In this document: piece after piece, positions 4,497-20,405 of the stretch
How the letters are laid out: each line of letters begins with the position of its first letter
Numbering within the stretch: position 1 is the first letter of the stretch
Origin: a virus
DNA length: 64,000 nucleotides
Strand: one strand, 5' to 3'
IMG/VR virus record: IMGVR_UViG_3300036770_006330
Made by a program: the position numbers and the translations under genes
Notes under the pieces: generated by a model
Databases searched by the model: none
What the model saw: only the letters and a program-made list of their open reading frames with translations
Told to the model about the DNA's origin: nothing

Positions 4497-4545
4497 CCTG
4501 TTCATCGTACACCTCGGTAGCCCCGTTGACCCAGCCAGCAAAACC

Positions 4546-4578
4546 CCGTCGGACATCTGGTGCGCCGTCGGACATCTG
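4546..4578 (+). repeat. direct repeat CCGTCGGACATCTG x2
   Basis: two copies read directly; combines the spacer sub-motifs CCGTCG and GACATC. Confidence 0.75.
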
Positions 4579-4596
4579 ACGACCTGCTTCACGGGC

Positions 4597-4627
4597 AAAA
4601 GAAAACACCCACCCTTTCGGGTGGGTG
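4597..4627 (-). terminator. intrinsic terminator
   Basis: CACCCACCC-TTTC-GGGTGGGTG, A-run on + (U-run on -). Confidence 0.75.
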
Positions 4628-4697
4628 CGTTCTTGGGGGTACTTCGTTGGTTAGAAGAGGAAAAAGGCGATTACTATCGCCAGCGCAAGTGTTTGAG

Positions 4698-4820
4698 TCA
4701 CTTCTCAACACCCCACGCTTCTTGTTTCCACTTCGCCCACTTCTCACGCTTCGTGTGTACCCAATCTCCGAGTGGGACACCGAAAACGACTGAGAGTAGT
4801 ATCAGTTGATACAACTTCAT
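4698..4820 (-). CDS. 40-aa small membrane-type protein (not in ORF track)
   Basis: MKLYQLILLSVVFGVPLGDWVHTKREKWAKWKQEAWGVEK; AAAGGGA SD; own promoter and terminator. Confidence 0.6.
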   Translation of the reverse strand: MKLYQLILLSVVFGVPLGDWVHTKREKWAKWKQEAWGVEK

Positions 4821-4849
4821 CTCGCTTCCCTTTCTAGTAGGTACTTTTC

Positions 4850-4879
4850 AGAGTAGCGAAATGACTAGTACTAAGTCAA
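4850..4879 (-). promoter_or_regulatory. SigA-type promoter
   Basis: TTGACT-N18-TACTCT. Confidence 0.7.
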
Positions 4880-5097
4880 GCACTCTTGTACCTCGTTCGT
4901 CAAGTTCGCTCAGGTGACTTCGGGCACTTGTGCCCCAGACAGCGCAAGCCGAGTTCGTGCGTTCAGGCGACCACGCACAGCGTTCCCACCCAAACCGAGT
5001 TCGTCTGCCATCACCAGACCCGTTTCAGCCAGCGAAGACCAGATGCTGATGTCTTCCAACGGGGCTCTTGGGCGGCTGTCCCACACCATCTTCTTTT

Positions 5098-5112
5098 GAC
5101 GGTGGCGGATGA
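5098..5112 (+). repeat. polar 15-mer copy 1
   Basis: GACGGTGGCGGATGA preceded by TCTTCTTTT. Confidence 0.9.
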
Positions 5113-5311
5113 ACCCCGACGGGTCGCCTGTTTAGACAATGGGTCTGCAAAAAGCAAGTTGCTCGCACCAGCATAATGTCTGGACTGAGGAGAAGTTTGG
5201 ACTTAGTCCAACTCTGGACAGCATCCACGTTCCAACTGGGACTTGACCCCAGAAGCCCCGCCATCTGGAGTCGCACGGGGACTGAGTTGCCCTTCTGGGG
5301 TGTTTGGGGGC

Positions 5312-5350
5312 AAAGAAAAACCCCGCCGAGTGGGGGTATCTCGGCGGGGT
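5312..5350 (-). terminator. intrinsic terminator
   Basis: ACCCCGCCGAG...CTCGGCGGGGT with A-run on +. Confidence 0.7.
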
Positions 5351-5355
5351 AGTCC

Positions 5356-5547
5356 TTATTCGGGTTGTGTCGTCACTCCCGAGAGAGCCCACCACAAGCG
5401 GAACGCTTGCCCGTGAACCTCACGGAGAGTTTCGGTCACCTCTTGCTCAGGGCTCGCCTCAACGTAGTCCTGAATGATGTTGGCGAGTTGTCGTGCGACG
5501 CTCGCAACATCCAAGAGAGTGACTGACGACTGAGTTGGCTCAGTCAT
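5356..5547 (-). CDS. hypothetical protein (63 aa)
   Basis: MTEPTQSS...; GGAGG SD; promoter upstream. Confidence 0.7.
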   Translation of the reverse strand: MTEPTQSSVTLLDVASVARQLANIIQDYVEASPEQEVTETLREVHGQAFRLWWALSGVTTQPE

Positions 5548-5564
5548 TAGTACCTCCACCAAGC

Positions 5565-5619
5565 AGGATAGTGGGGTACAAGTGGGACAGCAAGCATTTC
5601 CCGTGTGTTTGCCGTCACA
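5565..5619 (-). promoter_or_regulatory. SigA-type promoter with upstream CRP-like box
   Basis: TTGCTG-N17-TATCCT; TGTGT-N6-TCACA at 5604-5619. Confidence 0.6.
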
Positions 5620-5658
5620 TACCAGCGCAAACGGTTGGGAGAGCCGTCGTCGAGCCAG

Positions 5659-5692
5659 CCGGCTTCGAGCAAACCGGCTTCGAGCAAACCGG
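5659..5692 (+). repeat. tandem repeat CCGGCTTCGAGCAAA x2 (+CCGG)
   Basis: read directly. Confidence 0.85.
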
Positions 5693-5735
5693 ATGGTCTT
5701 CTTGCGGGGCTTCCGATGTCCCATCATCTTCTTCT

Positions 5736-5750
5736 GACGGTGGCGGAAGA
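5736..5750 (+). repeat. polar 15-mer copy 2
   Basis: GACGGTGGCGGAAGA. Confidence 0.9.
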
Positions 5751-5774
5751 GCAGTTCGCCCGTTCGGGGGCAAC

Positions 5775-5819
5775 AAAAAAAGGGGGCAAGCGCACCTCAT
5801 TGGTACGCCTGCCCCCTTT
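5775..5819 (-). terminator. intrinsic terminator
   Basis: AGGGGGCA.GCGCACC...GGTACGC.TGCCCCCT with A-run on +. Confidence 0.7.
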
Positions 5820-5828
5820 CAGGGGGTA

Positions 5829-6170
5829 CTACGGATAGCGAAGTTCTGACTTTTTACGGCGAGTGAACGTGAGTGGGCTGTTTTCTAGTTCCTTTGTAAG
5901 TTGCCAGCGCATTTTTGGCAGACAACCACGCAGGTACTTTTGTAGTCGGGCTACGGCGTAGAGGCGCATAGGGAATAATCCGTATGCCCACTCGGGTAGC
6001 TCGTCTTTATCGTTATCAACGATGACCCAATACGGCTTCACTTTTCCGTACTCAATGCGGTTCACACGCCGTATTGAGTAGCGCACCTGATTTCGGTGCG
6101 AAGTGTCGCCACTTTCGGGCGCATCGTCGCATTGACCGAAGTCAAAACGGGGTACGCCTTCTGTTTCCAT
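5829..6170 (-). CDS. hypothetical protein (leaderless)
   Basis: METEGVPRF...; ATG 7 nt after -10. Confidence 0.7.
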   Translation of the reverse strand: METEGVPRFDFGQCDDAPESGDTSHRNQVRYSIRRVNRIEYGKVKPYWVIVDNDKDELPEWAYGLFPMRLYAVARLQKYLRGCLPKMRWQLTKELENSPLTFTRRKKSELRYP

Positions 6171-6177
6171 AGAGGTC

Positions 6178-6231
6178 ACTCTATCCCACTTATGCCCAAT
6201 GAGCAAGTTTTAGTTTGTGACCCACGACACG
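6178..6231 (-). promoter_or_regulatory. SigA-type promoter with CRP-like box
   Basis: TTGCTC-N17-TAGAGT; TGTGA-N6-ACACG from 6216. Confidence 0.6.
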
Positions 6232-6617
6232 TTTTCCTCGGTCACGACCCCAACCACCGAGAGTGACCGCCTAACCACGCCTGTTTGTAAGGGTTGCCTA
6301 ACTGTTAGGTGAGCCTTACGTTGATTTATCACTAAGCCAGCCAGACCACCAGCGATGTCGAGAACTCCTCGCCAGCTCTGGGCTTCGCCACGGGGCTTCA
6401 GAGGCGAACGCGTGAAGAACTCCCAGTCGCCGTCGGGGGGCGGGCGCAGCACGGGAACTTATCCAATAAACCGTTTGGTTGCGGGCACAACCATCTTGCT
6501 TCACCCAAAGAAGTTGCCAACATACCGAGTTGATGTCGGAAAGTCAATGTCCCAGATGGCGACGCACGTCCTTCTCGAGAAGACCTCAAGAGCCCCGCAA
6601 CAAACCGCCATCAAACC

Positions 6618-6632
6618 GACGGTGGCGGAAGA
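6618..6632 (+). repeat. polar 15-mer copy 3
   Basis: GACGGTGGCGGAAGA. Confidence 0.9.
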
Positions 6633-6637
6633 AGGAC

Positions 6638-6675
6638 AAAAAAAATCGGGCGCCCCCGTTGCTGGGAACGCCCGA
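6638..6675 (-). terminator. intrinsic terminator
   Basis: A8 followed by TCGGGCG...CGCCCGA hairpin. Confidence 0.65.
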
Positions 6676-6823
6676 CTTCTTTGCTTGATTTCAGAACAGC
6701 ACTAGTGCTACTAGAACTGCGACTGCAAGTGACTGAATCACGACAGGTGCTTCCTTTCTGCCGTTACGCGTTGTAGTGATAGGTGACGCGCGAGCGTACA
6801 CGGTCTTTTGGGAAATGTCAACT

Positions 6824-7060
6824 TTAGACGGACTTCTCCAACTCTTTCGCCAGAACGACGAGCGAATCGTCGTTGTTTAGGCGCGAATGGAACACAATGC
6901 GCTTGATGAGAAGGCGTACTAGCCACTTCAGTTGAGCGTTCTCTGCGAGCAAGTCGTCGCGCTCAGTGTCGCGCTTTGACTTCTCCTCGTAGAACTTCGC
7001 CCAGCCGACCCGGCGTGACGCCTCAAGCCCTTGTATGACTTGAGTAGTGGTGGTTTTCAT
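6824..7060 (-). CDS. hypothetical protein (78 aa)
   Basis: MKTTTTQVIQG...; AGGAG SD. Confidence 0.7.
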   Translation of the reverse strand: MKTTTTQVIQGLEASRRVGWAKFYEEKSKRDTERDDLLAENAQLKWLVRLLIKRIVFHSRLNNDDSLVVLAKELEKSV

Positions 7061-7262
7061 GGTATCTCCTGTAGGTTCGGTTTCCACCCTTAGTTGACGG
7101 ATAAGAGCACCGCTTGGTCAGTAAATGTCAAATGACATTGGACACATGGTGTTACAGCAGCGCCAGGTCGCCGTCGACAGCTGAGCTTGCGGCCCGGCCG
7201 GGCTCGAGGGACATCAAGCTCCCGGGACTTCGGTGCCGTCGGCAAGCGCTTCATCTTCTTTT

Positions 7263-7277
7263 GACGGTGGCGTATGA
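7263..7277 (+). repeat. polar 15-mer copy 4
   Basis: GACGGTGGCGTATGA. Confidence 0.9.
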
Positions 7278-7284
7278 CGGGCAC

Positions 7285-7328
7285 AAAGAAGAAGCCCACC
7301 CACCCCATAACGCAGGGCAGGTGGGCTT
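7285..7328 (-). terminator. intrinsic terminator
   Basis: AAGCCCACC...GGTGGGCTT. Confidence 0.6.
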
Positions 7329-7349
7329 GCTACTTGGGCTAAGCGGTGA

Positions 7350-7763
7350 TTAGCAGCCCATACGCTGTTCGTGATAGCGCTCGCTCGCCAGTTCAGACGC
7401 AGCGTGGCGGTACTCGGCAATGTAGTCCTGAACCTGTGCGGGTAGGGCTGACTCATTCAGGCGGTGTAACTTGCCCGAGCCATCGCAATACTCGCAGCGA
7501 GCGTCAAACGCACCTTGTGCGTAGTTCAGGCTGAACTCGTCACCGTGCGCTAGCAGTTCGTCAGTAGACATAGCGCCGAAGCGGTGAGAATGGAAGCCGT
7601 TACCACGACAGGTGTCGCAGATAACCCATTCCATCTCAAACTCAAACGGCAGCAGTTCGCCACGCTCAACGGCATCAACTAGTGACTCCAATAGGCGTGA
7701 CTCCGAGGTGTGTAATGCGTAGCGCTTAGCGCTAAGCAGTCCGTCATAGTCGATTTCTGGCAT
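7350..7763 (-). CDS. hypothetical protein with DnaJ-type CxxCxGxG zinc knuckles
   Basis: CDTCRGNG and CEYCDGSG. Confidence 0.75.
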   Translation of the reverse strand: MPEIDYDGLLSAKRYALHTSESRLLESLVDAVERGELLPFEFEMEWVICDTCRGNGFHSHRFGAMSTDELLAHGDEFSLNYAQGAFDARCEYCDGSGKLHRLNESALPAQVQDYIAEYRHAASELASERYHEQRMGC

Positions 7764-7798
7764 AGATGACCCCCTTGGGTCTGATAGTAGGTAGTTAG

Positions 7799-7853
7799 AT
7801 TTTAGGGGCACTAACGGCATAAGTCAAGAGCCGCAGCCGTGTTCGCCGACACA
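7799..7853 (-). promoter_or_regulatory. SigA-type promoter with CRP-like box
   Basis: TTGACT-N17-TAAAAT; CGTGT-N6-ACACA at 7838-7853. Confidence 0.7.
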
Positions 7854-7949
7854 CACCCAACGCCGCCGTAGGTCGTCGCCCGTCGGCTGTCCCCGCCAAC
7901 CCCCTTCGGCAGTCCCGCCGCCGACGACGCAGATGTCTCGTCTTCTTTT

Positions 7950-7964
7950 GACGGTGGCGGATGA
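7950..7964 (+). repeat. polar 15-mer copy 5
   Basis: GACGGTGGCGGATGA. Confidence 0.9.
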
Positions 7965-8051
7965 CCGATTACGGGCACTAAAAAACCACCCCCACAACCG
8001 AGATTTATCTCAGCGCAGGGGTGGCTTAGAAGTCAGGCTATCGGGGTTTTG

Positions 8052-8546
8052 CTACACCGCAACCTGTGTGAATGGGCAGACTGCCTGCTCTCCGAACACC
8101 TTCTCGTAGAGCCAGCGACCGTTTTGCCAGTCGGTTTCCCAGCCCCCATCTGAACCGATGTCTACGCACGAACCGTAGATGACCTTCGCACGGATGAGAA
8201 CGGCTGTTACGACCGTGTCATAGGGCTTCTGGTTCGTCTTACAGAAGTCAAAGATTTGGTGCTTCTTCTCACGGTCGCCTGCGTAGGCTTTCACCCACCA
8301 CTCGGGCTGTTCGGGTAGTGCTTCCCACGAAAAGGTTTCGTGGTCTTGGTCGTTTAGTTCTTGACCATTGAAGCGAAAGTAGCCTTCGGTGAACTCAGGC
8401 TCCCCTTTCCCATCCCAGCCAGCGATGACTATTCCTTCCAACTTGGCTTGCTCGATGATTTTCTTAGCGTCAAGCGCTAGTTTCCCGAACATCCAAGCCG
8501 ACCCGACATTACGTTTGTCTCGGGTGACGTAGTGCGTGTATCCCAT
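8052..8546 (-). CDS. conserved-looking phage hypothetical protein (MGYTHY...FCKT..KPYD)
   Basis: 164 aa ORF with promoter and SD. Confidence 0.8.
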   Translation of the reverse strand: MGYTHYVTRDKRNVGSAWMFGKLALDAKKIIEQAKLEGIVIAGWDGKGEPEFTEGYFRFNGQELNDQDHETFSWEALPEQPEWWVKAYAGDREKKHQIFDFCKTNQKPYDTVVTAVLIRAKVIYGSCVDIGSDGGWETDWQNGRWLYEKVFGEQAVCPFTQVAV

Positions 8547-8578
8547 TAGGTAGGTATTCCCCTTTCTTGTTGTAAGTC

Positions 8579-8607
8579 AGTCTAGGGGCACTTGGGGTAT
8601 CTGTCAA
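8579..8607 (-). promoter_or_regulatory. SigA-type promoter
   Basis: TTGACA-N17-TAGACT. Confidence 0.75.
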
Positions 8608-8608
8608 A

Positions 8609-8809
8609 CTATCGGATGCGATTTGCTGGGTGGCGTTGCTTGGTCGCAGCCAAAGCATCGCAGTTCAGATGCTCGTAGCCGACCCCCCGCAGGTGCTTCA
8701 CGGGAGTCCCGCCATCCATCTGGCAACCACAGTTCAGGCACGTGGCTTGCTTTGCCAGAACAACGACGACTCCGAGTTTGACTGGGTTATTGGTAATAGT
8801 TAGGTTCAT
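8609..8809 (-). CDS. small zinc-finger-like protein (leaderless)
   Basis: CLNC...HLNC; ATG 6 nt after -10. Confidence 0.65.
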   Translation of the reverse strand: MNLTITNNPVKLGVVVVLAKQATCLNCGCQMDGGTPVKHLRGVGYEHLNCDALAATKQRHPANRIR

Positions 8810-8815
8810 ACAAGC

Positions 8816-8844
8816 AACTTACCCAACACCCATAAAGAAGTCAA
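8816..8844 (-). promoter_or_regulatory. SigA-type promoter
   Basis: TTGACT-N17-TAAGTT. Confidence 0.7.
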
Positions 8845-8948
8845 GTATTTCATCGCTGGCGAAGTTCTTATCGCCGTCGATTTCTCCTACCGGCTTAGTG
8901 CTAATCATTTTTGCGCCGGGGCTTGCGGGTTTCCTGAGTTCTTCTTTT

Positions 8949-8963
8949 GACGGTGGCGGATGA
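8949..8963 (+). repeat. polar 15-mer copy 6
   Basis: GACGGTGGCGGATGA. Confidence 0.9.
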
Positions 8964-9026
8964 CGGGCGTACCCCAGACCACCTACACGGGCTTGACCTG
9001 ACCTACCAAATGGTCACGGGAAATGC

Positions 9027-9055
9027 TTGACTTTCATCCGTGTGGTTCGTAAGTT
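9027..9055 (+). promoter_or_regulatory. SigA-type promoter
   Basis: TTGACT-N17-TAAGTT. Confidence 0.7.
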
Positions 9056-9062
9056 GGAATGT

Positions 9063-9344
9063 ATGCGTACACCTACCTATTATCTTGTCCGTACCTATGT
9101 CCGTGTGATTTTCTGGACTGCTGTCGCCTTCGGGTTGATTTGGCTGGTCAGCACTTCTGTCGGTTCGTGGGATAAATACGAATGTGTAGAAACCAATGTG
9201 GTCGTTCAGCCCTACGACACAATGTGGGCTATCGCAGAGAAATACTGTGACGGCAACATTGAGGTCGCAGTAGCCGATTTGATTTCGGCGCACGGCTCTG
9301 CTACGGTTATCGTTGGGCAAACTATTGAGGTGCGTAATAAGTGA
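9063..9344 (+). CDS. membrane-anchored LysM-domain protein (leaderless)
   Basis: N-terminal TM then VVQPYDTMWAIAEKY...IVGQTIEV. Confidence 0.75.
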   Translation: MRTPTYYLVRTYVRVIFWTAVAFGLIWLVSTSVGSWDKYECVETNVVVQPYDTMWAIAEKYCDGNIEVAVADLISAHGSATVIVGQTIEVRNK

Positions 9345-9742
9345 CCGAACAAGATTTTGATAACAAGCGTTATGGAGTGGTAGAGAGTGTTCGCCCTTCT
9401 TCCGTAATAAAGTGCGACGGTTGCGCCAAAGATGTACCGTGCTTTTCGCAAACAAACCTGCCCGAACACGGCTTCGTGCTTACGCTTGCGTCAATGGACT
9501 ACTACGGTGGGTTCAGCGACTTTTTTGATGACGAGCCACCCAAGTTCCTGCTGTGCCACGACTGTTCGTTGGCACTCATAACTGCTCTGCCGTTGGTCGC
9601 AGAACGCTTACCCCGAGGACTACACCCGTGCGACTTAGATACGCCGTGCTGCGACTATGCGTGGAAATGGATTAGCGACGGACAATGGAAAGACAACAAC
9701 CTTCACTTTGCCAAAGACGGCAAATGGGTTCCTGCTTCGTAA
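9341..9742 (+). CDS. Cys-rich hypothetical protein
   Basis: CDGC, CHDC; GTGA-type overlap with the upstream gene. Confidence 0.65.
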   Translation: MTEQDFDNKRYGVVESVRPSSVIKCDGCAKDVPCFSQTNLPEHGFVLTLASMDYYGGFSDFFDDEPPKFLLCHDCSLALITALPLVAERLPRGLHPCDLDTPCCDYAWKWISDGQWKDNNLHFAKDGKWVPAS

Positions 9743-9797
9743 TGAACAGTATCGCTTTCTCTGTCGTGATTTTTTTGGTGCTGTTCGTTATCTTGCC

Positions 9798-9992
9798 TTA
9801 GTCAAAGAGGCTCATAGCCTGCTCTTTCGGCGGGCTTTCCACGCAGATGCCGTGTGCGTAGCGATACAACTTCTCTACTTGCTTGATACCACCTGTCTTG
9901 CCGACCTTCACCCAGCAAGTGACTTGATGCCAAGTTCCTTCGGCTGTCGGGTCGAGTGGATGTGCGCAGACGACGCAGTTGTAGAGGTTCAT
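9798..9992 (-). CDS. small zinc-finger-like protein (leaderless)
   Basis: CVVC...HGIC; TACTAT -10 6 nt upstream of ATG. Confidence 0.65.
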   Translation of the reverse strand: MNLYNCVVCAHPLDPTAEGTWHQVTCWVKVGKTGGIKQVEKLYRYAHGICVESPPKEQAMSLFD

Positions 9993-10041
9993 ACCCAGAT
10001 AGTATCAGCGGGGCTCCCGCCCCCGCAAGGGGACTTCTTCT

Positions 10042-10056
10042 AACGGTGGCGGATGA
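10042..10056 (+). repeat. polar 15-mer copy 7
   Basis: AACGGTGGCGGATGA. Confidence 0.9.
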
Positions 10057-10070
10057 GTTGGTCGGGGAAT

Positions 10071-10111
10071 AGAAAACGGGCAGGCGCACCATCTCGGCAC
10101 GCCTGCCCGTT
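10071..10111 (-). terminator. intrinsic terminator
   Basis: AACGGGCAGGCG...CGCCTGCCCGTT. Confidence 0.7.
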
Positions 10112-10148
10112 AGGGGGTTTGGGGTGTTGTTGGCGAGATAACTCGCTA

Positions 10149-10574
10149 TTAGTAGACGGTCTCCAAGTCGTCTGCGTTGGCATAGCGCACGGTGTATCCA
10201 CGCCCCATAGGTACGTCGTGGTGTGCGAGGTTCAGGTGAAGCGTGTCTCCGCTAAGCGAATAGCGCAAGCGCCACTCGGCATTGACAGTGACTGCGTGTA
10301 TGAAGTCACGAACTTTATCCGCAACGAAGGTTCCGCCAACTGAGCGGTTCCACAATGGCAGTCCGTCTATCGCCCACACACGCTTACCGTGCGTTGCGAG
10401 TGAAGGGTTGTTATCCCACCACGCTTTGACTGCGTAGTAGAAGTTGTCTACTTGTTCATCCCAACAACTGCCATCGCAGTAGTCAAGTGGTGTGGTTGTG
10501 TCGGTGTCTGGGTCGTAGTTAGCGCACGAACAAACATTCGTGAACTCACCATCCCATTCTGGTTTGTTTGTCAT
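10149..10574 (-). CDS. hypothetical protein (leaderless)
   Basis: MTNKPEWDGEF...HHDVPMG. Confidence 0.75.
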   Translation of the reverse strand: MTNKPEWDGEFTNVCSCANYDPDTDTTTPLDYCDGSCWDEQVDNFYYAVKAWWDNNPSLATHGKRVWAIDGLPLWNRSVGGTFVADKVRDFIHAVTVNAEWRLRYSLSGDTLHLNLAHHDVPMGRGYTVRYANADDLETVY

Positions 10575-10580
10575 ACCACT

Positions 10581-10609
10581 ATTCTGTCGCACTTTTGCCC
10601 CAATGTCAA
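10581..10609 (-). promoter_or_regulatory. SigA-type promoter
   Basis: TTGACA-N17-CAGAAT. Confidence 0.65.
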
Positions 10610-10771
10610 GTGTTTGGTCGCAGGTCACTTGACTTCGTGCCGGCGAGAGGCTCAGTACCGGCGAGCAAGCCGGATGTCTGGTCGAACCGGCGACAGCAAC
10701 CCGACGACGCCGGCTCAACAGGATGCCGCCCTAGGCGGGGCTTCAGACCCGACGGCAACCTGTCTTGTTTT

Positions 10772-10786
10772 GACGGTGGCGTATGA
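10772..10786 (+). repeat. polar 15-mer copy 8
   Basis: GACGGTGGCGTATGA. Confidence 0.9.
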
Positions 10787-10799
10787 GCGTAGATAGCAC

Positions 10800-10834
10800 A
10801 ACGGGCGAGCGCACCCGAAGGTACGCCCGCCCGT
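10800..10834 (-). terminator. terminator-like hairpin
   Basis: ACGGGCG.GCGCACC-CGAA-GGTACGC.CGCCCGT. Confidence 0.65.
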
Positions 10835-10863
10835 AGTCGGGGGGATTTGGGGTTGTTAGGCGA

Positions 10864-11232
10864 CTACTCCCACGATGAGAGGTCTAACACCATTTCGGCT
10901 AGTTGGTCGCAATAGACCATAGGCGTGCGAGCCTCAACGATTTCGGTATTTGCGTCTTTGCCACGCTTTACGAAACGGATACGGCTAACCGTGTAGGTGT
11001 CTGAGAAGTCAAGCACCACCTCAATACGACGGTCGTGCGTAATCGGCAACAGTACGCCGACATTCTCACCTTGTTCATCTTTTAGATAGGCGACACGCCC
11101 GCCCGACACGCCGAGCATCGTCATCATTCCTATTTGGTGTTTGATTTCGTTCACGTCGCAAGGGCGACCTTCACGGATAAGAGAGAGAACAGTCGCCCCT
11201 TGACGACCGCCCCATTTGAGTGTTGTTGTCAT
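10864..11232 (-). CDS. hypothetical protein (leaderless)
   Basis: 122 aa; promoter TTGACA-N17-TACGCT at 11239-11267. Confidence 0.75.
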   Translation of the reverse strand: MTTTLKWGGRQGATVLSLIREGRPCDVNEIKHQIGMMTMLGVSGGRVAYLKDEQGENVGVLLPITHDRRIEVVLDFSDTYTVSRIRFVKRGKDANTEIVEARTPMVYCDQLAEMVLDLSSWE

Positions 11233-11277
11233 AGGTTCAGCGTACCACTTGTACCTCAGACTGTCAAGTGTTGTCGC

Positions 11278-11481
11278 TTAGGCGAAGCGTGGTTCTCCGT
11301 GAGGCGGGCAGTCCGAATAGGGGTTCTCGTTCCCCTCGTTATCTTCACAACCGCACCAACCGAATAGTTCTACCTGAGTTTCGTGCGTCAGTTCTAGTAG
11401 GTCATCATACGAAGGCGACCCACCCAACTCGCTTATGACGATTTTCCAGAAGTCCACGAATAGTTGTTCGCTGTTTGTCAT
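11278..11481 (-). CDS. small acidic Cys-containing protein (leaderless)
   Basis: promoter TTGACA-N17-TAGTAT at 11488-11516. Confidence 0.7.
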   Translation of the reverse strand: MTNSEQLFVDFWKIVISELGGSPSYDDLLELTHETQVELFGWCGCEDNEGNENPYSDCPPHGEPRFA

Positions 11482-11597
11482 ACCTTCATACTAGGCATAA
11501 GTGTCTCAGTTGTCAAGTTTTGGTTGTCCCCTGTTCCCCGCCGTCGTTGGGACAGCAACCCCAACGGGGCTGCCGAACGGCGGGCACTTCTTCTTCT

Positions 11598-11612
11598 AAC
11601 GGTGGCGGATGA
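11598..11612 (+). repeat. polar 15-mer copy 9
   Basis: AACGGTGGCGGATGA. Confidence 0.9.
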
Positions 11613-11623
11613 CTTCACGGGAG

Positions 11624-11666
11624 AAAAGAAAAGGGCGGGCGCACCGAGTTGGTACGCCCGCCCTTT
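11624..11666 (-). terminator. intrinsic terminator
   Basis: AAGGGCGGGCGCACC...GGTACGCCCGCCCTT with A-runs on +. Confidence 0.75.
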
Positions 11667-11689
11667 GGCGGATTACTGAGAGTTAGCGC

Positions 11690-11977
11690 TCAGTTGCGCC
11701 GCGCCTCAAAGGCGAATAGCCCTGCGAAGGGGTTTGGGTATCCGATTACATCATTTGCCCAGCGCTCAGCGTCGCTGTTTTGGGTTTCGCAGTCACGGAA
11801 GCGCTTTGCCGACGATAGGTAGGTAGCCCCATCACGGTCTTTGCGTATCGCAATAGCGAGTGCTTTGGTGATTTGGTCGTAATGAACGGTAATCGTGACT
11901 GTCGTATCGGGTGTACCCCACCCGTCTGCGACAACCCCAGTCACCGTGTATGTCGGTTTCTTTTTGGTGTTTGTCAT
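11690..11977 (-). CDS. hypothetical protein (leaderless)
   Basis: promoter TTGACT-N17-TAACCT at 11984-12012. Confidence 0.7.
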   Translation of the reverse strand: MTNTKKKPTYTVTGVVADGWGTPDTTVTITVHYDQITKALAIAIRKDRDGATYLSSAKRFRDCETQNSDAERWANDVIGYPNPFAGLFAFEARRN

Positions 11978-12336
11978 AGCCTAAGGTTAGCCCACTACTG
12001 CCCCTAAGTCAAGTTTATTGGGTGTGACTTGCGCCGAGGCGTTGGCTTGGTAGGCGACCCTGACGACGGCAAGCCCAGACGACGACATCAGTCCCATCCG
12101 ACAGGTCGGGAGCCCCGCCGGATGGCGGCGGCAACCCCAAAACGCGTTTCTCCTCAGCCGCAGCGCCCGTGTTGTTAGCGTTTTCGCTAACACTTATTTA
12201 GTGCTAAGTCAGCAAACCCTTATTTCACGCCACTCGACTTTTACCGCTTATCGAAGTTCTCGTTCGAGCTGGCGCCGTCGTCGAGCATCTTCTGGTGTCC
12301 CAGCGGGGCTTCGGATGTCCGAACACCTGTTCTTTT

Positions 12337-12351
12337 GACGGTGGTGGATGA
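12337..12351 (+). repeat. polar 15-mer copy 10
   Basis: GACGGTGGTGGATGA. Confidence 0.9.
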
Positions 12352-12360
12352 GAAGGGGGT

Positions 12361-12404
12361 AGAAAGCAGAAAGCCCGCCACCCGATTACTCGGATGACGG
12401 GCTT
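12361..12404 (-). terminator. intrinsic terminator
   Basis: AAGCCCG.CA.CCG...CGG.TG.CGGGCTT. Confidence 0.65.
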
Positions 12405-12418
12405 CTGGATGGGCGTGA

Positions 12419-12850
12419 TTAGAGGCTGACTGTTTCCCGCAGGTACTTGTGCTTCTTGACTAACTTCCAAGTTGTCTTGTCCCCAACTACCTGAGCCTCA
12501 TAGACGCAGAGTTTGTCGTCGGCTAGCAGGTAGAGGAACTGCGCCCAACCGAAGTTCTTGCTCTTGTCGGTAAAGAGGTGCGGTTTATCTTCCTTGTAGG
12601 CGATACCGTACCCATCCACGAGCGAGAAATCGTCGGCATTACCGTGCCACATCTCAGCGAGTTTGGTCTTGCTTGCGTAGATAGATGACCACGCATTTTT
12701 CATCAGGTTCTTGCGAGCCTGTTCCAGACCATCACGCCGTACGAGAAGCAGTAGGTCAGGTACTTTTGCGTCTGGGTATCCATCCCAATGGCAATAGCGA
12801 CCTCGCCAACCGCCCTTGTGAGGCACAGCGATAATGCTACGAGTTGCCAT
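12419..12850 (-). CDS. phage hypothetical protein (YCHWDGYP family)
   Basis: MATRSII...YCHWDGYP motif. Confidence 0.8.
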   Translation of the reverse strand: MATRSIIAVPHKGGWRGRYCHWDGYPDAKVPDLLLLVRRDGLEQARKNLMKNAWSSIYASKTKLAEMWHGNADDFSLVDGYGIAYKEDKPHLFTDKSKNFGWAQFLYLLADDKLCVYEAQVVGDKTTWKLVKKHKYLRETVSL

Positions 12851-13037
12851 TTAGCACCTCGTCTAGCAACTGATAGGTGTCTATGCCCTCAATGAGAGAC
12901 AGGTTAGACCCGCTATCCCATTTCACATTGAGAACACGGTCACCGAAAGCGTCGGTAAATGAACCGACCACCTCGCCCTCATCACCCGCCGTTAGACGGG
13001 TGTAAGGGTCGTAGGTGTGGACTAAGCGGATACGCAC
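12837..13037 (-). CDS. DUF4314-like protein
   Basis: RIRLVHT.DP...G..G.V...D..G....V.WD.GS.LSLI...D pattern. Confidence 0.75.
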   Translation of the reverse strand: MRIRLVHTYDPYTRLTAGDEGEVVGSFTDAFGDRVLNVKWDSGSNLSLIEGIDTYQLLDEVLNGNS

Positions 13038-13039
13038 GG

Positions 13040-13294
13040 CTATTCCCCGCCCTCATTATCCAAGATGAGGTTTGCGAAGAAACACTTGGAAGCGGTGTGT
13101 CCAATGGTGAGGGACATACCGCACACTCCGAGTGTGTCCAGCAAGTTCATAGCCGTCAGTTCGTCAAGGCTTTCCAACTCACGGAGTTTTTCCGTCAGTC
13201 GTTCAGCCATACGCATTTGGATGACCAGCGTTTCTTCTTCATCCTTATTGGCGAAGAAGTCCACCACATCCTGTGGGAACTGTGTGGTGTTCAC
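13040..13294 (-). CDS. hypothetical protein
   Basis: operon-coupled ORF. Confidence 0.65.
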   Translation of the reverse strand: MNTTQFPQDVVDFFANKDEEETLVIQMRMAERLTEKLRELESLDELTAMNLLDTLGVCGMSLTIGHTASKCFFANLILDNEGGE

Positions 13295-13524
13295 TTGATA
13301 CCGTCAAACAGACGGACAGGCTTGACCGACAGCGCAACGCACAGGCGAAGCAGGGTGTCCAGATTTGGCGAGAAGTGGTTGTTCTCAATGCGGTTCACCG
13401 TCTTGCGGTCAATGCCAGCAAGTTCGGCAAGTGCTTGTTGAGAGAGTTCTGCGTCAATGCGGAACTGACGCAAGCGGTCTGCGACCACTTTCTCCTTCTT
13501 GCTCTTGGTTGGTTTGGTTTTCAT
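13291..13524 (-). CDS. XRE/Cro-family helix-turn-helix regulator
   Basis: RLRQFR...LSQQALAELAGIDRKTVNRIEN...P.LDTLLRLC.AL. Confidence 0.9.
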   Translation of the reverse strand: MKTKPTKSKKEKVVADRLRQFRIDAELSQQALAELAGIDRKTVNRIENNHFSPNLDTLLRLCVALSVKPVRLFDGIK

Positions 13525-13560
13525 TGGTTGTTTTCTCCTTGTTTGGTTTGGGTATTACAT

Positions 13561-14136
13561 CTAACAGATTTGGAAACCGCCACAGGCTTTCAGGAAGTTG
13601 GCGAACTCACGGATGTTGGCAAGATTTATGGAGTAGTTGGCTTCATTGGGTTCTGTTTCACCCTTGCCATTACATCCATTACAAGTCTGAGAGATTTCGG
13701 TCTCGTCTTTCTTGATGGGCAACTTCTTGTATTTCGGAAGTTTCTGCCCGTCACCCACGATGTCTGCCATTATGTCGTAGTCGTATGGGTTGCGAGTTTC
13801 GCCCGTCTTGGTGTTTTTGTACCAAAGGCGCATACCTGTCGCCATACAATGCGAACACTTGCGCTTTGGCAGAGACTTGATGTAGTCGTTGCGCTCTTTG
13901 ATGTATTGCTTTGCCGTGCCGTCTTTGAGCGAAGCGAGCAGACGCTTCCCCAACTCCTCGCTATCCCAGCCATCCAAGCCGTCGCCGTCGTTTGAGTGGG
14001 CGTTCTTTACCTTGTCGCAGATTTCAGGTGCGACAGCCGAGCAGTAGTCCCACAAGGGATGCCACCACCAAATGTTGTTGCGGAAGTATTCGCCACGCTC
14101 GCTCGTCGGGTTTTGCCCGTACACATCCATTCCCAT
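13561..14136 (-). CDS. phage hypothetical protein with CxxCxGxG zinc finger
   Basis: YFRNNIWWWHPLW; CSHC / CNGCNGKG; promoter TTGACG-N17-TAACTT at 14169-14197. Confidence 0.8.
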   Translation of the reverse strand: MGMDVYGQNPTSERGEYFRNNIWWWHPLWDYCSAVAPEICDKVKNAHSNDGDGLDGWDSEELGKRLLASLKDGTAKQYIKERNDYIKSLPKRKCSHCMATGMRLWYKNTKTGETRNPYDYDIMADIVGDGQKLPKYKKLPIKKDETEISQTCNGCNGKGETEPNEANYSINLANIREFANFLKACGGFQIC

Positions 14137-14328
14137 AGTTATTCACTCCTCGTTAGTAGGTGTACCACAAGTTATCCGCTATTTACGCTTTCGTCAAGTC
14201 TTTCTGGGTGGCTTCTGGCACAGCCCACTTTGGGTATCGCCAGCGTTCGCCGTCGTTCACGCCGGTTCGCCGGTTTGCGCCACCAGCCGTATCAGCCGGG
14301 GCTTCGGGGTTGGCGCACATCTTCTTAC

Positions 14329-14343
14329 GACGGTGGCGTATGA
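14329..14343 (+). repeat. polar 15-mer copy 11
   Basis: GACGGTGGCGTATGA. Confidence 0.9.
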
Positions 14344-14384
14344 GATGGGGTACGACCCAACACACATCAGTTTCCAGACAGCAC

Positions 14385-14421
14385 AAAGGGGCTGGCATAC
14401 CCGAAGGTACACCAGCCCCTT
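14385..14421 (-). terminator. intrinsic terminator
   Basis: AAGGGGCTGG..TACC-CGAA-GGTA..CCAGCCCCTT. Confidence 0.7.
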
Positions 14422-14441
14422 GTGGGTGGGTTTTTGGGGGG

Positions 14442-14933
14442 TTAGTTGCCCTTGGCGAGCATTGAGCGAAGCGTCTGACGGAGAGCGTCGGCAAGAGTTC
14501 CCTTTGCCTGCCCGAAGTCAAGTACGGGTTCGTCATCACCTTGGAAACGAACTGACGAAACCATTTGGTTCGTCTTGGTTGCGAGCGTGGTTAGACGGAC
14601 ACGCTTGCGCTGTGGGTGCTGTGACGGTTGGCAGTTGTTTCCGTCATTGGGGCTAGCCCAACCGACTGTCTCGCAGACAAGAGCCACTTCGTTTTCAGCC
14701 AGCGTGTGAGTACGGGCAACATTTGCCAGACCTACATACACATCTGGGTATGCGTCTAGGTGACGAACGAAACCGTCTGCCGACAGAGCGAACATCTGAG
14801 CAGACATACGCTCAAACTCGTCTAGTTTCTTGACGGTTGCCAACTCTTGTAGTGCCTTCTCTGCCGAAGTCACCAAGCGTTCTAGGTCTTGGTGGTTCAG
14901 GCGTTTCTTTTCTGTTATTGGTTTCTTAGCCAC
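14442..14933 (-). CDS. hypothetical protein
   Basis: GTG start with GAAGGGA SD; promoter TTGACT-N17-TACCTT at 14964-14992. Confidence 0.75.
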   Translation of the reverse strand: MAKKPITEKKRLNHQDLERLVTSAEKALQELATVKKLDEFERMSAQMFALSADGFVRHLDAYPDVYVGLANVARTHTLAENEVALVCETVGWASPNDGNNCQPSQHPQRKRVRLTTLATKTNQMVSSVRFQGDDEPVLDFGQAKGTLADALRQTLRSMLAKGN

Positions 14934-15155
14934 TATTGCTTCCCTTCTGTGAGTGGTACTTACAAGGTACAGGTAGTAGCCACGCAAGTCAAGTTTCTTC
15001 GTGTGACTTGCGACAACGAGCGTTTAGGCAGACCTAACAAGCAGACCCAACGAATAGCACCTGCGCCAAACCTGCCCCACGCCGTCTGGGACACGACGAC
15101 GGCGACATCACGGGTCGCACCACCGGGGCTTCGGGGCGACCCGTGTTCTTCTTGT

Positions 15156-15170
15156 GACGGTGGCGTATGA
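15156..15170 (+). repeat. polar 15-mer copy 12
   Basis: GACGGTGGCGTATGA. Confidence 0.9.
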
Positions 15171-15187
15171 CCCGTTCGTGGGTACGA

Positions 15188-15222
15188 GAAAGGGGCGCAC
15201 CCCCTTTCGGGAGTACGCCCCT
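15188..15222 (-). terminator. intrinsic terminator
   Basis: AGGGGCG.AC.CCC-TTTC-GGG.GT.CGCCCCT. Confidence 0.65.
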
Positions 15223-15241
15223 GTTGGCTGGTTGCTATCGG

Positions 15242-15601
15242 TTATTCGCCGTTGAGCAAGCCAGAAATGTCGTCGGGTACGCCTTCTTTGGCGACCAAGA
15301 GAGCGTTCGCCGTGACGCTGTATTTGCGAACCATCTTGCTGATGTATTCCTGCTTCGCTTTATCGTCGCCGTGAAGCATTATCGCTCGGGCTTCGTCTAG
15401 TAGTTGCTCTTGGGTGACTTCGCCCTTGTCCACCATTTGCTCTAAGGCTGTGATGAGTTCTCGGGCGATTACTGCGCTGTAAGTGCGAGCCATAAAGTCA
15501 CGCACACGCTCGGGCATTTCCCCGTCGCCCTGTGTTGCTTCCCACACTTCTAGAAATGTAGGTATCGGGTTGTTCTTGTTCGTTTTGGGTGTCCACTCCA
15601 T
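15242..15601 (-). CDS. hypothetical protein
   Basis: AGGAG SD. Confidence 0.75.
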   Translation of the reverse strand: MEWTPKTNKNNPIPTFLEVWEATQGDGEMPERVRDFMARTYSAVIARELITALEQMVDKGEVTQEQLLDEARAIMLHGDDKAKQEYISKMVRKYSVTANALLVAKEGVPDDISGLLNGE

Positions 15602-15612
15602 TGTTGTTCTCC

Positions 15613-16260
15613 TTAGTTGTGCTTGGACATCTCAACCATTTGGCAGTATTTCACGAAAGCGTGAAACACATCTGGCACACGACCTTGCTGTGGCTCGGTT
15701 GCGTCGTAGTGAAACACATCTGCGTCATCTTCATACACAGGTAGTCCGTTGTCGCCGTACTTGTAGAACTGCGACATAGTTGCGCTTTCGCCTGTCCACG
15801 CAAAGGCTGTGGCGATAAGACCTTCTTCCACATTTGAGAGTGGATTTTCGTGGAAGTCTTTTTCTAGCGCACCACGCTCGTAGTCGCCGTCTTGGGTAAG
15901 TTTGGCGAGTTCCTTCTTTCCTTCTTCGTTGTTGCTCAGACGACGAGCGAAACCTTCCACAACGAACATCAGGAAGCGAAACTTGGTAAGACCACTCTCA
16001 CCCAAGTCGTTGAGCATTTTTGGCAAGGCATCTACGGGGTGGTCGCCATTGGAGAGACACATCTCTATTACCTGCCCACCAAGACCTTCGTTGCCTTCGT
16101 CGTCTTTGATTTCCAGCCCAACGACAACCATTGGGTTCAGGTCTGTGTGTCCTTTGTTTTCTTCACACGCTGACGACTTCATACCCTTCGTCAGTTCCAT
16201 TGTGGAACGGAGTGCGTGTTCCAAGAGTTCCTTCTCGGACATACCTTCTAGGTCTGGCAT
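15613..16260 (-). CDS. hypothetical protein
   Basis: 215 aa; AAGGAG SD; promoter TTGACG-N18-TACACT at 16292-16321. Confidence 0.8.
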   Translation of the reverse strand: MPDLEGMSEKELLEHALRSTMELTKGMKSSACEENKGHTDLNPMVVVGLEIKDDEGNEGLGGQVIEMCLSNGDHPVDALPKMLNDLGESGLTKFRFLMFVVEGFARRLSNNEEGKKELAKLTQDGDYERGALEKDFHENPLSNVEEGLIATAFAWTGESATMSQFYKYGDNGLPVYEDDADVFHYDATEPQQGRVPDVFHAFVKYCQMVEMSKHN

Positions 16261-16324
16261 TAGTGATACTCCTTGCTTGTAGGTACTACTGAGTGTAGGG
16301 GGTACAGGGTACAGTCGTCAAGGG

Positions 16325-16594
16325 CTATTCGTCACCCAAGAGATTTCGCAAGTCGGTGTCTAGGTTCTGGGCTTCGTCTTTGGCTACTTGTTCTTCCCAC
16401 TCGGCTATGCCCTTGTCGGTGTGCTTATTCAGCATTTCAGCCACTTCCAGCAGGCTTGCTATGTCCTGTTCCTTGTATTCATAGTCACGGCGCATAAGCG
16501 TCACCAGACGGTCTGAAATGGCTTTGTGGACTTCACACATCTGCTGAAAGGTGAGAGTGATAGTTCCTGTGTAGTTGCTCGGTTCGTGTTCCAT
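16325..16594 (-). CDS. hypothetical protein
   Basis: MEHEPSNY... acidic helical protein. Confidence 0.65.
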   Translation of the reverse strand: MEHEPSNYTGTITLTFQQMCEVHKAISDRLVTLMRRDYEYKEQDIASLLEVAEMLNKHTDKGIAEWEEQVAKDEAQNLDTDLRNLLGDE

Positions 16595-16732
16595 ACCCGT
16601 ACTACGCACGATTTCCAGAAAGTGTGATGCCCGTAGCAAGAAGTTTCCGACGGCACAGCGAACTGCGCCAGCCACCAGAAGGTCGGTAGCCCCGTGCGCC
16701 ATCTTCGCCAGCCGGGGCTTCGGTCTTGTTGC

Positions 16733-16747
16733 GACGGTGGCGTATGA
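16733..16747 (+). repeat. polar 15-mer copy 13
   Basis: GACGGTGGCGTATGA. Confidence 0.9.
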
Positions 16748-16791
16748 CCCGACGAGAGCGACGGGGGCAGTCGGCTGGCATAATGGTTGCT

Positions 16792-16947
16792 ATGGGAGAG
16801 CGAAAGATACGAGCCAAGTGGCTAGACGGAGAGCGTCAGGCGTTCGCAGACGGCTTGCGCTACCGTGCCGTGCGCTTCCAAGACCGTAGGAAGCAGACAG
16901 CCAAATACCTGTGCCGTCGCCAACCACGCTTCCCCGAAGGCGAGTGA
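16792..16947 (+). CDS. small basic hypothetical protein (probably leaderless)
   Basis: CATAAT 7 nt before ATG. Confidence 0.5.
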   Translation: MGERKIRAKWLDGERQAFADGLRYRAVRFQDRRKQTAKYLCRRQPRFPEGE

Positions 16948-16997
16948 CGCAGTTCACACGACAAAGACTTGACGAAGGCTATTGTCGCCTGTACGGT
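16943..16997 (+). promoter_or_regulatory. CRP-like box plus SigA-type promoter
   Basis: AGTGA-N6-TCACA (16943-16958), 10 nt, then TTGACG-N17-TACGGT. Confidence 0.7.
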
Positions 16998-17035
16998 ACA
17001 GAGTGCCATACACACCTACTAGGAAGGACTAGATA

Positions 17036-17446
17036 ATGGCACTATCACCAGAACAAACAGCCCGTCTGTTTCTGAACGCTCGTCAGGCGTTTATGGAAGC
17101 AGAGAAGGCAAAGAAGGAAGCCGAAACGGAACTCCGTAAGGCTCTCGCAACTCTCGGCGTGAACGAAATCGTCGTTGAGGGTCACTCTGTCCAAATCGTT
17201 GATGTGGTGAACACCACCTACGACGCAGACAAGTTGGCGCAAGTCGTCAAGCCAGCCGTGTTCCGTAAGGTCACGAAGTCCGTCGTGGACAAGGACTTGA
17301 TGAAGTCGGCACTCGCCGTCGGTCTTATTGACCAACTCACGGCTGATGAAGTGTCCACCGTGAAACCCACGACGCAGGTGCGTGTGTACGCACTCTCGCC
17401 AGAGGCAAAGAAGTCGCAACAGAACGAAGTCGCAAAGTCGGCGTAG
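17036..17446 (+). CDS. hypothetical coiled-coil protein
   Basis: AGGA SD; 136 aa. Confidence 0.8.
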   Translation: MALSPEQTARLFLNARQAFMEAEKAKKEAETELRKALATLGVNEIVVEGHSVQIVDVVNTTYDADKLAQVVKPAVFRKVTKSVVDKDLMKSALAVGLIDQLTADEVSTVKPTTQVRVYALSPEAKKSQQNEVAKSA

Positions 17447-17567
17447 TTCGGGGGCGAAGGACTGTTCGCTCGTTCACAAGTAGTGACCTAACTGTTTGCG
17501 AGCGAGTGAACGGTCAGGGTGGGGTCTGTCTCGTAGAGAAGGGGCAGACACCCACCCACCGAAATAC

Positions 17568-17596
17568 TTGCGTTGTGATAACGCAGTCGCTACTAT
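17568..17596 (+). promoter_or_regulatory. SigA-type promoter
   Basis: TTGCGT-N17-TACTAT. Confidence 0.65.
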
Positions 17597-17640
17597 CAGT
17601 AATACCTACTAACTACTACCTACGAAAGAAGGAAGCAACA

Positions 17641-19985: not shown

Positions 19986-19996
19986 GAGTGCGAAGG

Positions 19997-20040
19997 TGGG
20001 CTGGTCTGGTCAAATCACGCTTCCTTGCCAGACCAGCCCA
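19997..20040. terminator. 13-bp inverted repeat after the vWA gene
   Basis: TGGGCTGGTCTGG...CCAGACCAGCCCA. Confidence 0.6.
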
Positions 20041-20109
20041 CAGAAACACGCAATAGGAAGCGATTACAGACGAGTTAGAGAAGCGTCGGCTACCTAGATA
20101 GGGGGGCAA

Positions 20110-20393: not shown

Positions 20394-20405
20394 TGCTAAC
20401 TGTTT

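Follow-up and report, generated by a model that had tools for sequence, protein, structure and literature searches.

A one-directional 24-nt motif marks the boundaries of shuffled gene units in a family of large uncultured phages

Most phage genes without known function sit in hypervariable early regions, and genes for host takeover and anti-defence are likely among them. To our knowledge, the turnover of such regions is understood in detail only for T4-type phages. In these phages, composite motifs of promoter and stem-loop (promoter-early stem-loops, PeSLs) flank ORFans in hyperplastic regions and serve as exchange points for modular shuffling (Arbiol et al. 2010, PMC2839356; Comeau et al. 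2014, PMC4122927). Here we describe a related arrangement in a 64,000-nt stretch of viral DNA (IMG/VR record IMGVR_UViG_3300036770_006330, hereafter the window, at its full length), where small genes at 4520-16950 are arranged in an array of units separated by a 24-nt motif. The source is a large uncultured phage of ~160 kb. We find it rather probable that the array is a hyperplastic early-gene region which is shuffled by recombination between dispersed direct repeats, as are the T4 PeSL regions.

The motif has the consensus TCTTCTTTTGACGGTGGCGGATGA with the core RACGGTGGYGKAWGA. There are 13 copies between 4.6 and 16.75 kb, all on the plus strand, where a first-pass annotation of the window had described a polar motif repeated about 12 times, and seven more copies further right, up to 26.4 kb, bring the total in the window to 20. 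The core pattern ACGGTGG[CT]G[GT]A[TA]GA has 20 matches on the plus strand (5099-26406) and none on the minus strand, and the 18-mer TTTGACGGTGGCGGATGA with at most three mismatches gives 17 matches in the window, all on the plus strand, compared to 0.07 expected. This orientation is uniform over 21 kb even though the genes run on both strands, with minus-strand genes at 4.6-16.7 kb and plus-strand genes at 17-26 kb. The copies are intergenic, with one copy per unit boundary, and are confined to the early region. An element to the left of the motif, which had also been described at first pass, is recovered as CGGGGCT 14-41 nt upstream (mostly 32-41 nt) of 11 of the 13 copies in 4520-16950, while the exact 9-mer CGGGGCTTC adjoins six of the 13. 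CGGGGCT occurs 13 times on the plus strand of the window, always within 5-25.4 kb and never in the other 36 kb, and ends 16-21 nt ahead of the CTTCTT of the motif. Among leftward genes the context reads CGGGGCT-N16-21-CTTCTTnTGACGG... followed by a hairpin, and among rightward genes (T)AGTATCGCTAAC-N2-5-RACGG..., directly after a stop codon and ahead of a promoter or start codon. Most of the seven copies at 20397-26406 are preceded by (T)AGTATCGCTAAC and not by CGGGGCT...CTTCTT.

The motif is a trait of a whole family of uncultured phages. Relatives were gathered from IMG/VR with an exact 17-mer from the motif, and all 46 loci obtained hold between 1 and 12 core copies, on a single strand per locus and with a spacing of ~650-850 bp. 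When up to three mismatches are allowed, 263 copies in these loci lie on the majority strand versus 3 on the opposite strand, and among 209 unique copies conservation exceeds 96% at 12 of the 15 core positions. Four relatives are rated 100% complete (G004, G006, G007 and G008; 137-170 kb), and in each of them the motif is limited to one region of 15-20 kb and to one strand. The motif also has lineage-specific variants, as the GGAAGA form makes up 13 of 14 copies in G008 versus 1 of 16 in G004, which fits concerted evolution or co-evolution with a reader. No match to the motif was found in 185,579 prokaryote species genomes, Rfam returned no known RNA family at E<=1, and a search of the literature accessible to us found nothing relevant.

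Coding roles for the motif were also considered. That it forms the coding end of small plus-strand open reading frames (ORFs; ...SSFDGGG-stop) was rejected, as the frames upstream of it are interrupted by stops and TGA is replaced by AGA in many copies. Its ATG was also rejected as a start codon, as most copies in G008 read AAG.

The scaffold between the motif copies is repeated from unit to unit and combines a SigA/sigma-70-like promoter, between one and five small genes and a strong hairpin. The promoter pattern TTGAC-N17-19-TANNNT has 23 matches in the window compared to 4.98 +/- 2.44 in shuffles, which confirms the near-consensus SigA promoters proposed at first pass. Nineteen of the 23 are located within 4.8-25.8 kb, mostly on the strand of the gene that they precede. 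Between 4.85 and 16.3 kb there are 12 near-consensus promoters on the minus strand in addition to those on the plus strand, and most units have one upstream. To the right of most copies among minus-strand genes follows an A-run and a strong hairpin. Terminator-like sites number 27 compared to 15.5 +/- 3.2 expected, the strongest all being on the minus strand just right of motif copies, and a structure of -31 to -46 kcal/mol is located no more than 80 nt away from 10 of the 13 copies. Since the motif-adjacent hairpins fold better as minus-strand than as plus-strand RNA across the family (p=7e-8), we conclude that they are the terminators of the leftward genes. The hairpins of the first-pass annotation are confirmed, but some have no clear T-run.

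The spacer between promoter and motif is variable in the array (40-400 bp), and 48-291 nt separate the promoter from the next CGGGGCT. The spacers are GC-rich, as had been claimed (0.61 versus 0.52 in genes). They are less conserved than the genes and evolve faster, and the idea that they are conserved elements in themselves was therefore rejected. The description of the units as self-contained and on the minus strand applies to most of them, but the unit at 9027-9742 is on the plus strand and several units consist of two promoter-gene sub-units without a motif in between. Other exceptions to the scheme are copy 16734, which lies in a divergent promoter region and not after a terminator, and copy 5099, which is separated from its hairpin by 200 nt.

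The first-pass annotation proposed that gene units are swapped at the conserved boundary, and comparison of five genomes shows that gene order is indeed not common to the relatives, with whole units gained, lost and moved. From ~14.4 kb rightward all five are colinear. The part of the array adjoining the SNF2 helicase gene at its left edge is hypervariable, and the left part of the array is common to the closest relative only (L013, 75-85% identical to the window). The 638-bp unit between copies 5099 and 5737 is missing at the matching place in L013, where a hybrid copy (L013:304) combines the left flank of window copy 5099 with the right flank of window copy 5737. This unit 2 is present elsewhere in L013 (2845-3513), and the homology block runs exactly from motif to motif. 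Similarly, the 687-bp unit between copies 7264 and 7951 (the ORFan unit 5) is absent from L013, and the hybrid copy L013:1891 matches window copy 7264 in its left flank and window copy 7951 in its right flank. At the hybrid junctions the identity is 84-89% on one side, with none on the other. In addition, the cassette at 9027-9992 is bounded by the motif both in the window and in the more distant relatives G002-G004, at different array positions, and gene lists of near-identical contigs (Logan, JGI) show different cargo beside conserved neighbours.

These examples are reflected in the counts. For block ends inside the arrays of all loci, 36 of 311 homology-block ends fall at motif edges compared to 10.5 +/- 3.1 expected (maximum 20 in 1000 randomisations), i.e., a share of ~12% or 3.4 times chance, and no block ends inside the motif core. 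Of the non-redundant copy pairs that show any homology in their flanks, 63 match on both sides, 32 on the left only and 39 on the right only. Judged by these alignments, the motif is a frequent, though not exclusive, mosaic junction. Exchange of units at the motif is thereby supported, and with units gained, lost and moved and junctions inside the motif, the earlier term of a 'moron'-like exchange platform is a fair description.

The PeSL system is, in our comparison, the closest known system, and the array is best regarded as a distinct variant of it with an extra polar motif. Both are hyperplastic, ORFan-rich regions in which a sigma-70-like early promoter and a terminator stem-loop enclose each ORFan, and in both the indels and replacements between close relatives end in a repeated intergenic motif, a pattern interpreted as recombination between dispersed repeats. 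Like PeSL regions, the array is linked to ORFans and to the most variable genome part. However, the repeated homology in PeSLs consists of the promoter and stem-loop themselves, while here it is a separate 24-nt non-promoter motif with CGGGGCT. Promoter and stem-loop are interleaved in PeSLs but lie 40-400 bp apart here, separated by the variable GC-rich spacer. The motif is also co-oriented whatever the gene direction and conserved far beyond its flanks. Finally, the phage lineage is unrelated, and the mini-circles that arise by exchange between neighbouring motifs are known from PeSLs.

A similar exchange probably operates here. The small genes, many of them ORFans, form autonomous promoter-gene-terminator units, each boundary being marked by the co-oriented 24-nt motif, usually with CTTCTT ahead of its core and with CGGGGCT 16-21 nt further upstream. 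Exchange between any two of the direct-repeat copies would then delete, duplicate or excise a self-sufficient unit, and an excised unit could re-enter at another motif copy. The array would thus be reshuffled one unit at a time, without damage to its expression signals. Direct repeats give deletions, duplications and circles rather than inversions, which fits the unit-sized indels observed. By analogy with T4 PeSLs, we infer that the exchange is driven by homology and not by a dedicated recombinase.

Several observations weigh against this explanation. About 88% of the homology-block ends in the arrays lie away from motif edges, and some rearrangement breakpoints are at promoters or within units. 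Gene 11278-11481, for example, was relocated in L013 together with its promoter, with breakpoints at promoters and not at the motif, so that swapping at the conserved boundary accounts for several junctions but not for all. A conserved island alone can also make alignments stop at its edges. RecT was not found in the relatives, further recombination proteins not having been searched for. Moreover, homology does not explain why the 15-nt core is nearly invariant across genomes that are only 65-75% identical, nor why the orientation is strict across both gene directions. As homology alone needs neither a near-invariant 15-mer nor strict polarity, a sequence-specific reader is implied, and the constancy of the motif would be due to this factor, which could be a regulator, a nickase or an RNA-level reader.

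The first-pass annotation also compared the array to an integron, and there is some likeness in the unrelated cargo, the co-oriented repeated boundary sites and the gain, loss and reordering at the level of cassettes. The features that define integrons are different. An IntI-type enzyme encoded with the array is lacking, as the tyrosine recombinase family PF00589 had no match in the four complete relatives although controls matched, and the serine recombinase PF00239 and Y1/HUH PF01797 are absent from the same genomes. The motif is asymmetric and not palindromic, with a consensus fold of 44 copies that has only 2 pairs (-0.08 kcal/mol), and does not resemble the foldable, imperfectly palindromic inverted repeats of attC sites. 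Integron cassettes are promoterless and depend on a common promoter, whereas the units here have their own promoter and mostly their own hairpin, and occur in both orientations. With no such recombinase in these relatives, an asymmetric motif and own promoters, the array is not an integron, and this part of the earlier reading is not supported. Lambdoid morons are likewise autonomous promoter-gene-terminator accessory units set among other genes, but they are single and scattered and have no common boundary motif, in contrast to the tandem array with conserved punctuation.

The motif might instead be the site of an enzyme. A dedicated strand-specific nickase, or an unrecognised recombinase of other than tyrosine, serine or Y1 type, could drive excision and insertion of cassettes at the motif, a scenario that we consider unlikely but worth keeping in mind. 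The localized single-strand interruptions of T5-, phiKMV- and tf-like phages are restricted to one strand, and relatives have them at similar positions (PMC3517423). The motif resembles them in that all sites share one strand whichever way the genes run, related genomes carry them at similar positions, and the nearly invariant 15-nt core has lineage-specific variants. The junctions inside the motif agree with such an enzyme, as does the co-orientation, which suits an excision and integration site with cargo in either orientation relative to it. However, the known nick sites are shorter (tf) or fewer and do not occur once per transcription unit. Each complete relative encodes one small HNH protein as a possible candidate, but its gene is far from the array. 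The lack of tyrosine, serine and Y1/HUH recombinases in these four genomes and the breakpoints away from the motif also speak against a dedicated enzyme. If it were true, the array would be a phage-borne platform that captures and redistributes self-expressed ORFans, integron-like in its working but built otherwise.

Alternatively, the motif might be a transcription signal only, either a stoperator-type operator or roadblock or a -35-type activator site, with the region diverging by ordinary illegitimate recombination and selection and the junctions being incidental. We regard this as rather improbable. The intergenic position, once per unit boundary and only in the early region, is what a transcription signal would show, and there is precedent in the stoperators of Cluster A mycobacteriophages, dispersed asymmetric sites that are bound by a monomeric repressor and oriented along transcription (PMC9283540). 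Stoperators are similar in that an asymmetric site of 13-15 bp recurs many times in short intergenic spaces, and the host may be related, but their sequence differs and no immunity repressor or integrase context was found here. In addition, while stoperators follow the direction of transcription, all copies here are on the plus strand with genes running both ways, and the distance from the motif to the minus-strand promoter varies between 40 and 400 nt. For up to one third of the copies among plus-strand genes, the TTGACG of the motif has a -10-like hexamer (TANNNT or TANNNN, e.g., TAGAAA) 17-18 nt downstream and could act as a -35 element. This is the case at copy 24668, where TTGACG is 18 nt ahead of TAGAAA, while copy 22914 has a TTGACA-17-TAAAGT promoter directly downstream. 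The motif was nevertheless rejected as a complete sigma-70 promoter, as no copy among minus-strand genes has a properly spaced -10 element. Furthermore, a conserved-island artefact can hardly explain the reciprocal hybrid junctions, where one side is 84-89% identical and the other has no identity at all.

A protein that could act on such a signal is encoded at 20663-21052, with an HA domain and a sigma-70 region 4 / Mor-like helix-turn-helix. In each of the four complete relatives it adjoins a motif copy, and homologues with as little as 39% identity retain the recognition helix SRQRVHQI unchanged. This protein family comprises 52 clusters and is seen in metagenomic phage contigs only. However, contigs that encode distant homologues with this helix lack the motif in the 11 kb fetched, and the protein was set aside as the reader on these grounds; we keep it as a weak candidate. 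The other candidate repressor with a helix-turn-helix (HTH) domain, at 13291-13524, is missing from G008. A phage sigma factor or a T7-type or virion RNA polymerase, which would make the motif a phage promoter, was not found: PF04542 had no match, PF00940 had none anywhere, controls included, and is therefore uninformative, and PHROGs gave no RNA polymerase match in the giant virion proteins of G004. These are giant ORFs of 2026, 2129 and 3915 aa upstream of the array region (68284-98422; L054, L055, L057), in which PHROGs detects scattered domains only (DNA-binding and an exonuclease-like part).

The motif could also act in plus-strand RNA, either as a signal of the nut/boxA or processing type on a long rightward transcript, or in small plus-strand RNAs from the spacers, of which it would be the 3' module. 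Its 5' half, CUUCUUUUGA, presumably resembles the boxA of Gram-positive rrn operons, an RNA signal would account for the single reading direction over 21 kb, and among plus-strand genes the motif lies within the operon mRNA just past stop codons. Some copies have perfect stems of 9-12 bp around a CGGGGCU loop. Overall, however, this hairpin folds no better than shuffled arms and has no strand bias, and was rejected as a conserved structure. Rfam matches and a consensus structure are lacking, no consistent plus-strand promoter was found in the fast-evolving spacers, and neither a phage RNA polymerase nor a sigma factor was detected, which makes an RNA-level role very unlikely. Recombination between the direct repeats in the manner of PeSLs, with the motif held constant by a reader, is therefore the explanation that we prefer.

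The phage itself has no close cultured relative, as megablast gave no match among 50,697 phage records. The gene at the left edge of the array (2562-4598, minus strand) encodes an SNF2 helicase with the Pfam domains SNF2-rel_dom and Helicase_C, and its nearest cultured homologues are Arthrobacter phage helicases with 31-35% identity. The SNF2 gene and its position thus agree with the first-pass annotation, but its two HARP domains do not, since Pfam reported no HARP domain in the first 200 residues. Other proteins encoded in the window include tail fibres, a head decoration protein, glycosyltransferases, ThyX and a PAPS-reductase-like protein. The host is probably an actinobacterium, judged from the promoters, the helicase relatives and some leaderless-looking starts. 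Two apparently leaderless starts fit such a host: the -10 element TAAGTT ends 6 nt from the ATG at 8809 on the minus strand (8809-8844), and CATAAT is located 7 nt ahead of the ATG at 16794 on the plus strand (16781-16949), which opens a basic ORF of 51 aa.

The cargo proteins of the array are mutually unrelated, as had been stated before, and most have no known domain. Exceptions are an XRE-type HTH protein, a DUF4314 protein and a weak LysM match. The ORFan gene of unit 5 (7350-7763) has itself as the sole match among 5.8 billion proteins, and one cargo protein of the window is also recorded on a 167-kb contig. Two tiny hydrophobic ORFs on the minus strand, 4698-4820 and 6691-6741 (40 and 16 codons), each have their own promoter and terminator. 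The adjacent minus-strand ORFs 15242-15601 and 15613-16260 belong to the same protein cluster as one undivided ORF of ~340-370 aa in relatives (G4 14563-15666, G2 12321-13349), which means either a split of the gene in the window or a fusion in the relatives.

Some features of the spacers were observed in addition. At 4600-20800 the genes are nearly devoid of several 4-bp palindromes that the spacers contain, with densities per kb of 0.13 versus 10.2 for CCGG, 0.39 versus 8.7 for TCGA, 0.13 versus 2.9 for AGCT and 0 versus 1.5 for GGCC in genes and spacers, respectively. CCGG is common again outside this zone, e.g., at 0-4.2 kb and beyond 20.8 kb, and the avoidance is confined to transcribed parts. 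The word GGACATC/GATGTCC recurs in spacers (window 4491-4580, 7209 and 21099, and also in relatives) and sometimes forms inverted pairs around CGGGGCT, and CTCGAGGGACATC is found twice, at 7203 and 21093. In G003 (L017/L049; copies 8996, 9663 and 10330), two adjacent 667-bp units have a common promoter/spacer half and different cargo, with 64% overall identity and few differences in the last 300 nt, which indicates that a duplicated scaffold can take up another gene. The features of the window are listed in Table 1.

Table 1. Positions of units, motif copies and associated features in the window.
Feature	Position	Strand	Details
Unit 1	4605-5088	-	hairpin 4605-4628; gene 4698-4820 (40 aa, hydrophobic); promoter 4850-4879
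Unit 1 spacer	4880-5088		GC-rich; CGGGGCT at 5060
Motif copy 1	5089-5112	+	core from 5099
Unit 2	5113-5726	-	untranslated 5113-5319 with inverted AGCCCCG at 5254; hairpin 5320-5337
Unit 2 gene	5356-5547	-	63 aa; GGAGG ribosome site
Unit 2 promoter-like sequence	near 5565-5593		TTGCTG-17-TATCCT; spacer with CGGGGCTTC at 5705
Motif copy 2	5727-5750	+	GGAAGA variant
Unit 3	5751-6608	-	terminator 5778-5820; gene 5829-6206; promoter 6519-6547
Unit 3 small ORFs	6210-6504	-	uncertain
Motif copy 3	6609-6632	+	degenerate 5' half; inverted AGCCCCG at 6591
Unit 4	6633-7253	-	terminator 6639-6682; 16-codon hydrophobic ORF 6691-6741; promoter 6793-6821
Unit 4 second part	gene 6824-7087	-	spacer with CGGGACTTC at 7223
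Motif copy 4	7254-7277	+	
Unit 5	7278-7940	-	terminator 7292-7328; ORFan gene 7350-7763 (137 aa); promoter 7799-7827; spacer 73% GC
Motif copy 5	7941-7964	+	
Unit 6	7965-8939	-	hairpin ~7985-8027; gene 8052-8546; promoter 8579-8607
Unit 6 second part	gene 8609-8809; promoter 8816-8844	-	leaderless-looking; CGGGGCTTG at 8917
Motif copy 6	8940-8963	+	
Unit 7	8964-10032	mixed	+ promoter 9027-9055
Unit 7 gene	9063-9344	+	transmembrane segment and weak LysM match
Unit 7 other genes	9341-9742; 9798-9992	+; -	9798-9992 convergent
Motif copy 7	10033-10056	+	
Unit 8	10057-10762	-	terminator 10075-10111; gene 10149-10574; promoter 10581-10609; spacer with CGGGGCTTC at 10736
Motif copy 8	10763-10786	+	
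Unit 9	10787-11588	-	hairpin 10801-10834; gene 10864-11232; promoter 11239-11267
Unit 9 second sub-unit	gene 11278-11481; promoter 11488-11516	-	
Motif copy 9	11589-11612	+	
Unit 10	11613-12327	-	terminator 11630-11666; gene 11690-11977; promoter 11984-12012
Unit 10 spacer			315 nt; CGGGGCTTC at 12304
Motif copy 10	12328-12351	+	
Unit 11	12352-14319	-	terminator 12370-12405; promoter 14169-14197; CGGGGCTTC at 14297
Unit 11 operon	12419-14136	-	five genes including DUF4314 (12837-13037) and XRE-type HTH (13291-13524)
Motif copy 11	14320-14343	+	
Unit 12	14344-15146	-	hairpin 14386-14421; gene 14442 to ~14936; promoter 14964-14992; spacer with CGGGGCTTC at 15124
Motif copy 12	15147-15170	+	
Unit 13	15171-16723	-	hairpin ~15191-15222; genes 15242-15601, 15613-16260
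Unit 13 second part	promoter 16292-16321; gene 16325-16702	-	CGGGGCTTC at 16713
Motif copy 13	16724-16747	+	- and + genes diverge here
Seven further motif copies	20397-26406	+	cores 20407, 21150, 22914, 23655, 24668, 25361, 26393; among + genes
HA + sigma-70 region 4 / Mor-like HTH protein	20663-21052	-	129 aa; adjoins copy 21150

With the 15-mer core as a simple sequence handle, metagenomes can be searched for such arrays and their cargo, and the reader of the motif could prove to be a new regulator or DNA enzyme once it is found. What distinguishes this family is the nearly invariant, one-directional boundary motif around which the units appear to shuffle. Collectively, our results suggest that unit-by-unit shuffling also takes place in an uncultured family unrelated to T4-type phages, and that exchange at repeated regulatory punctuation may be a general solution in large phages.

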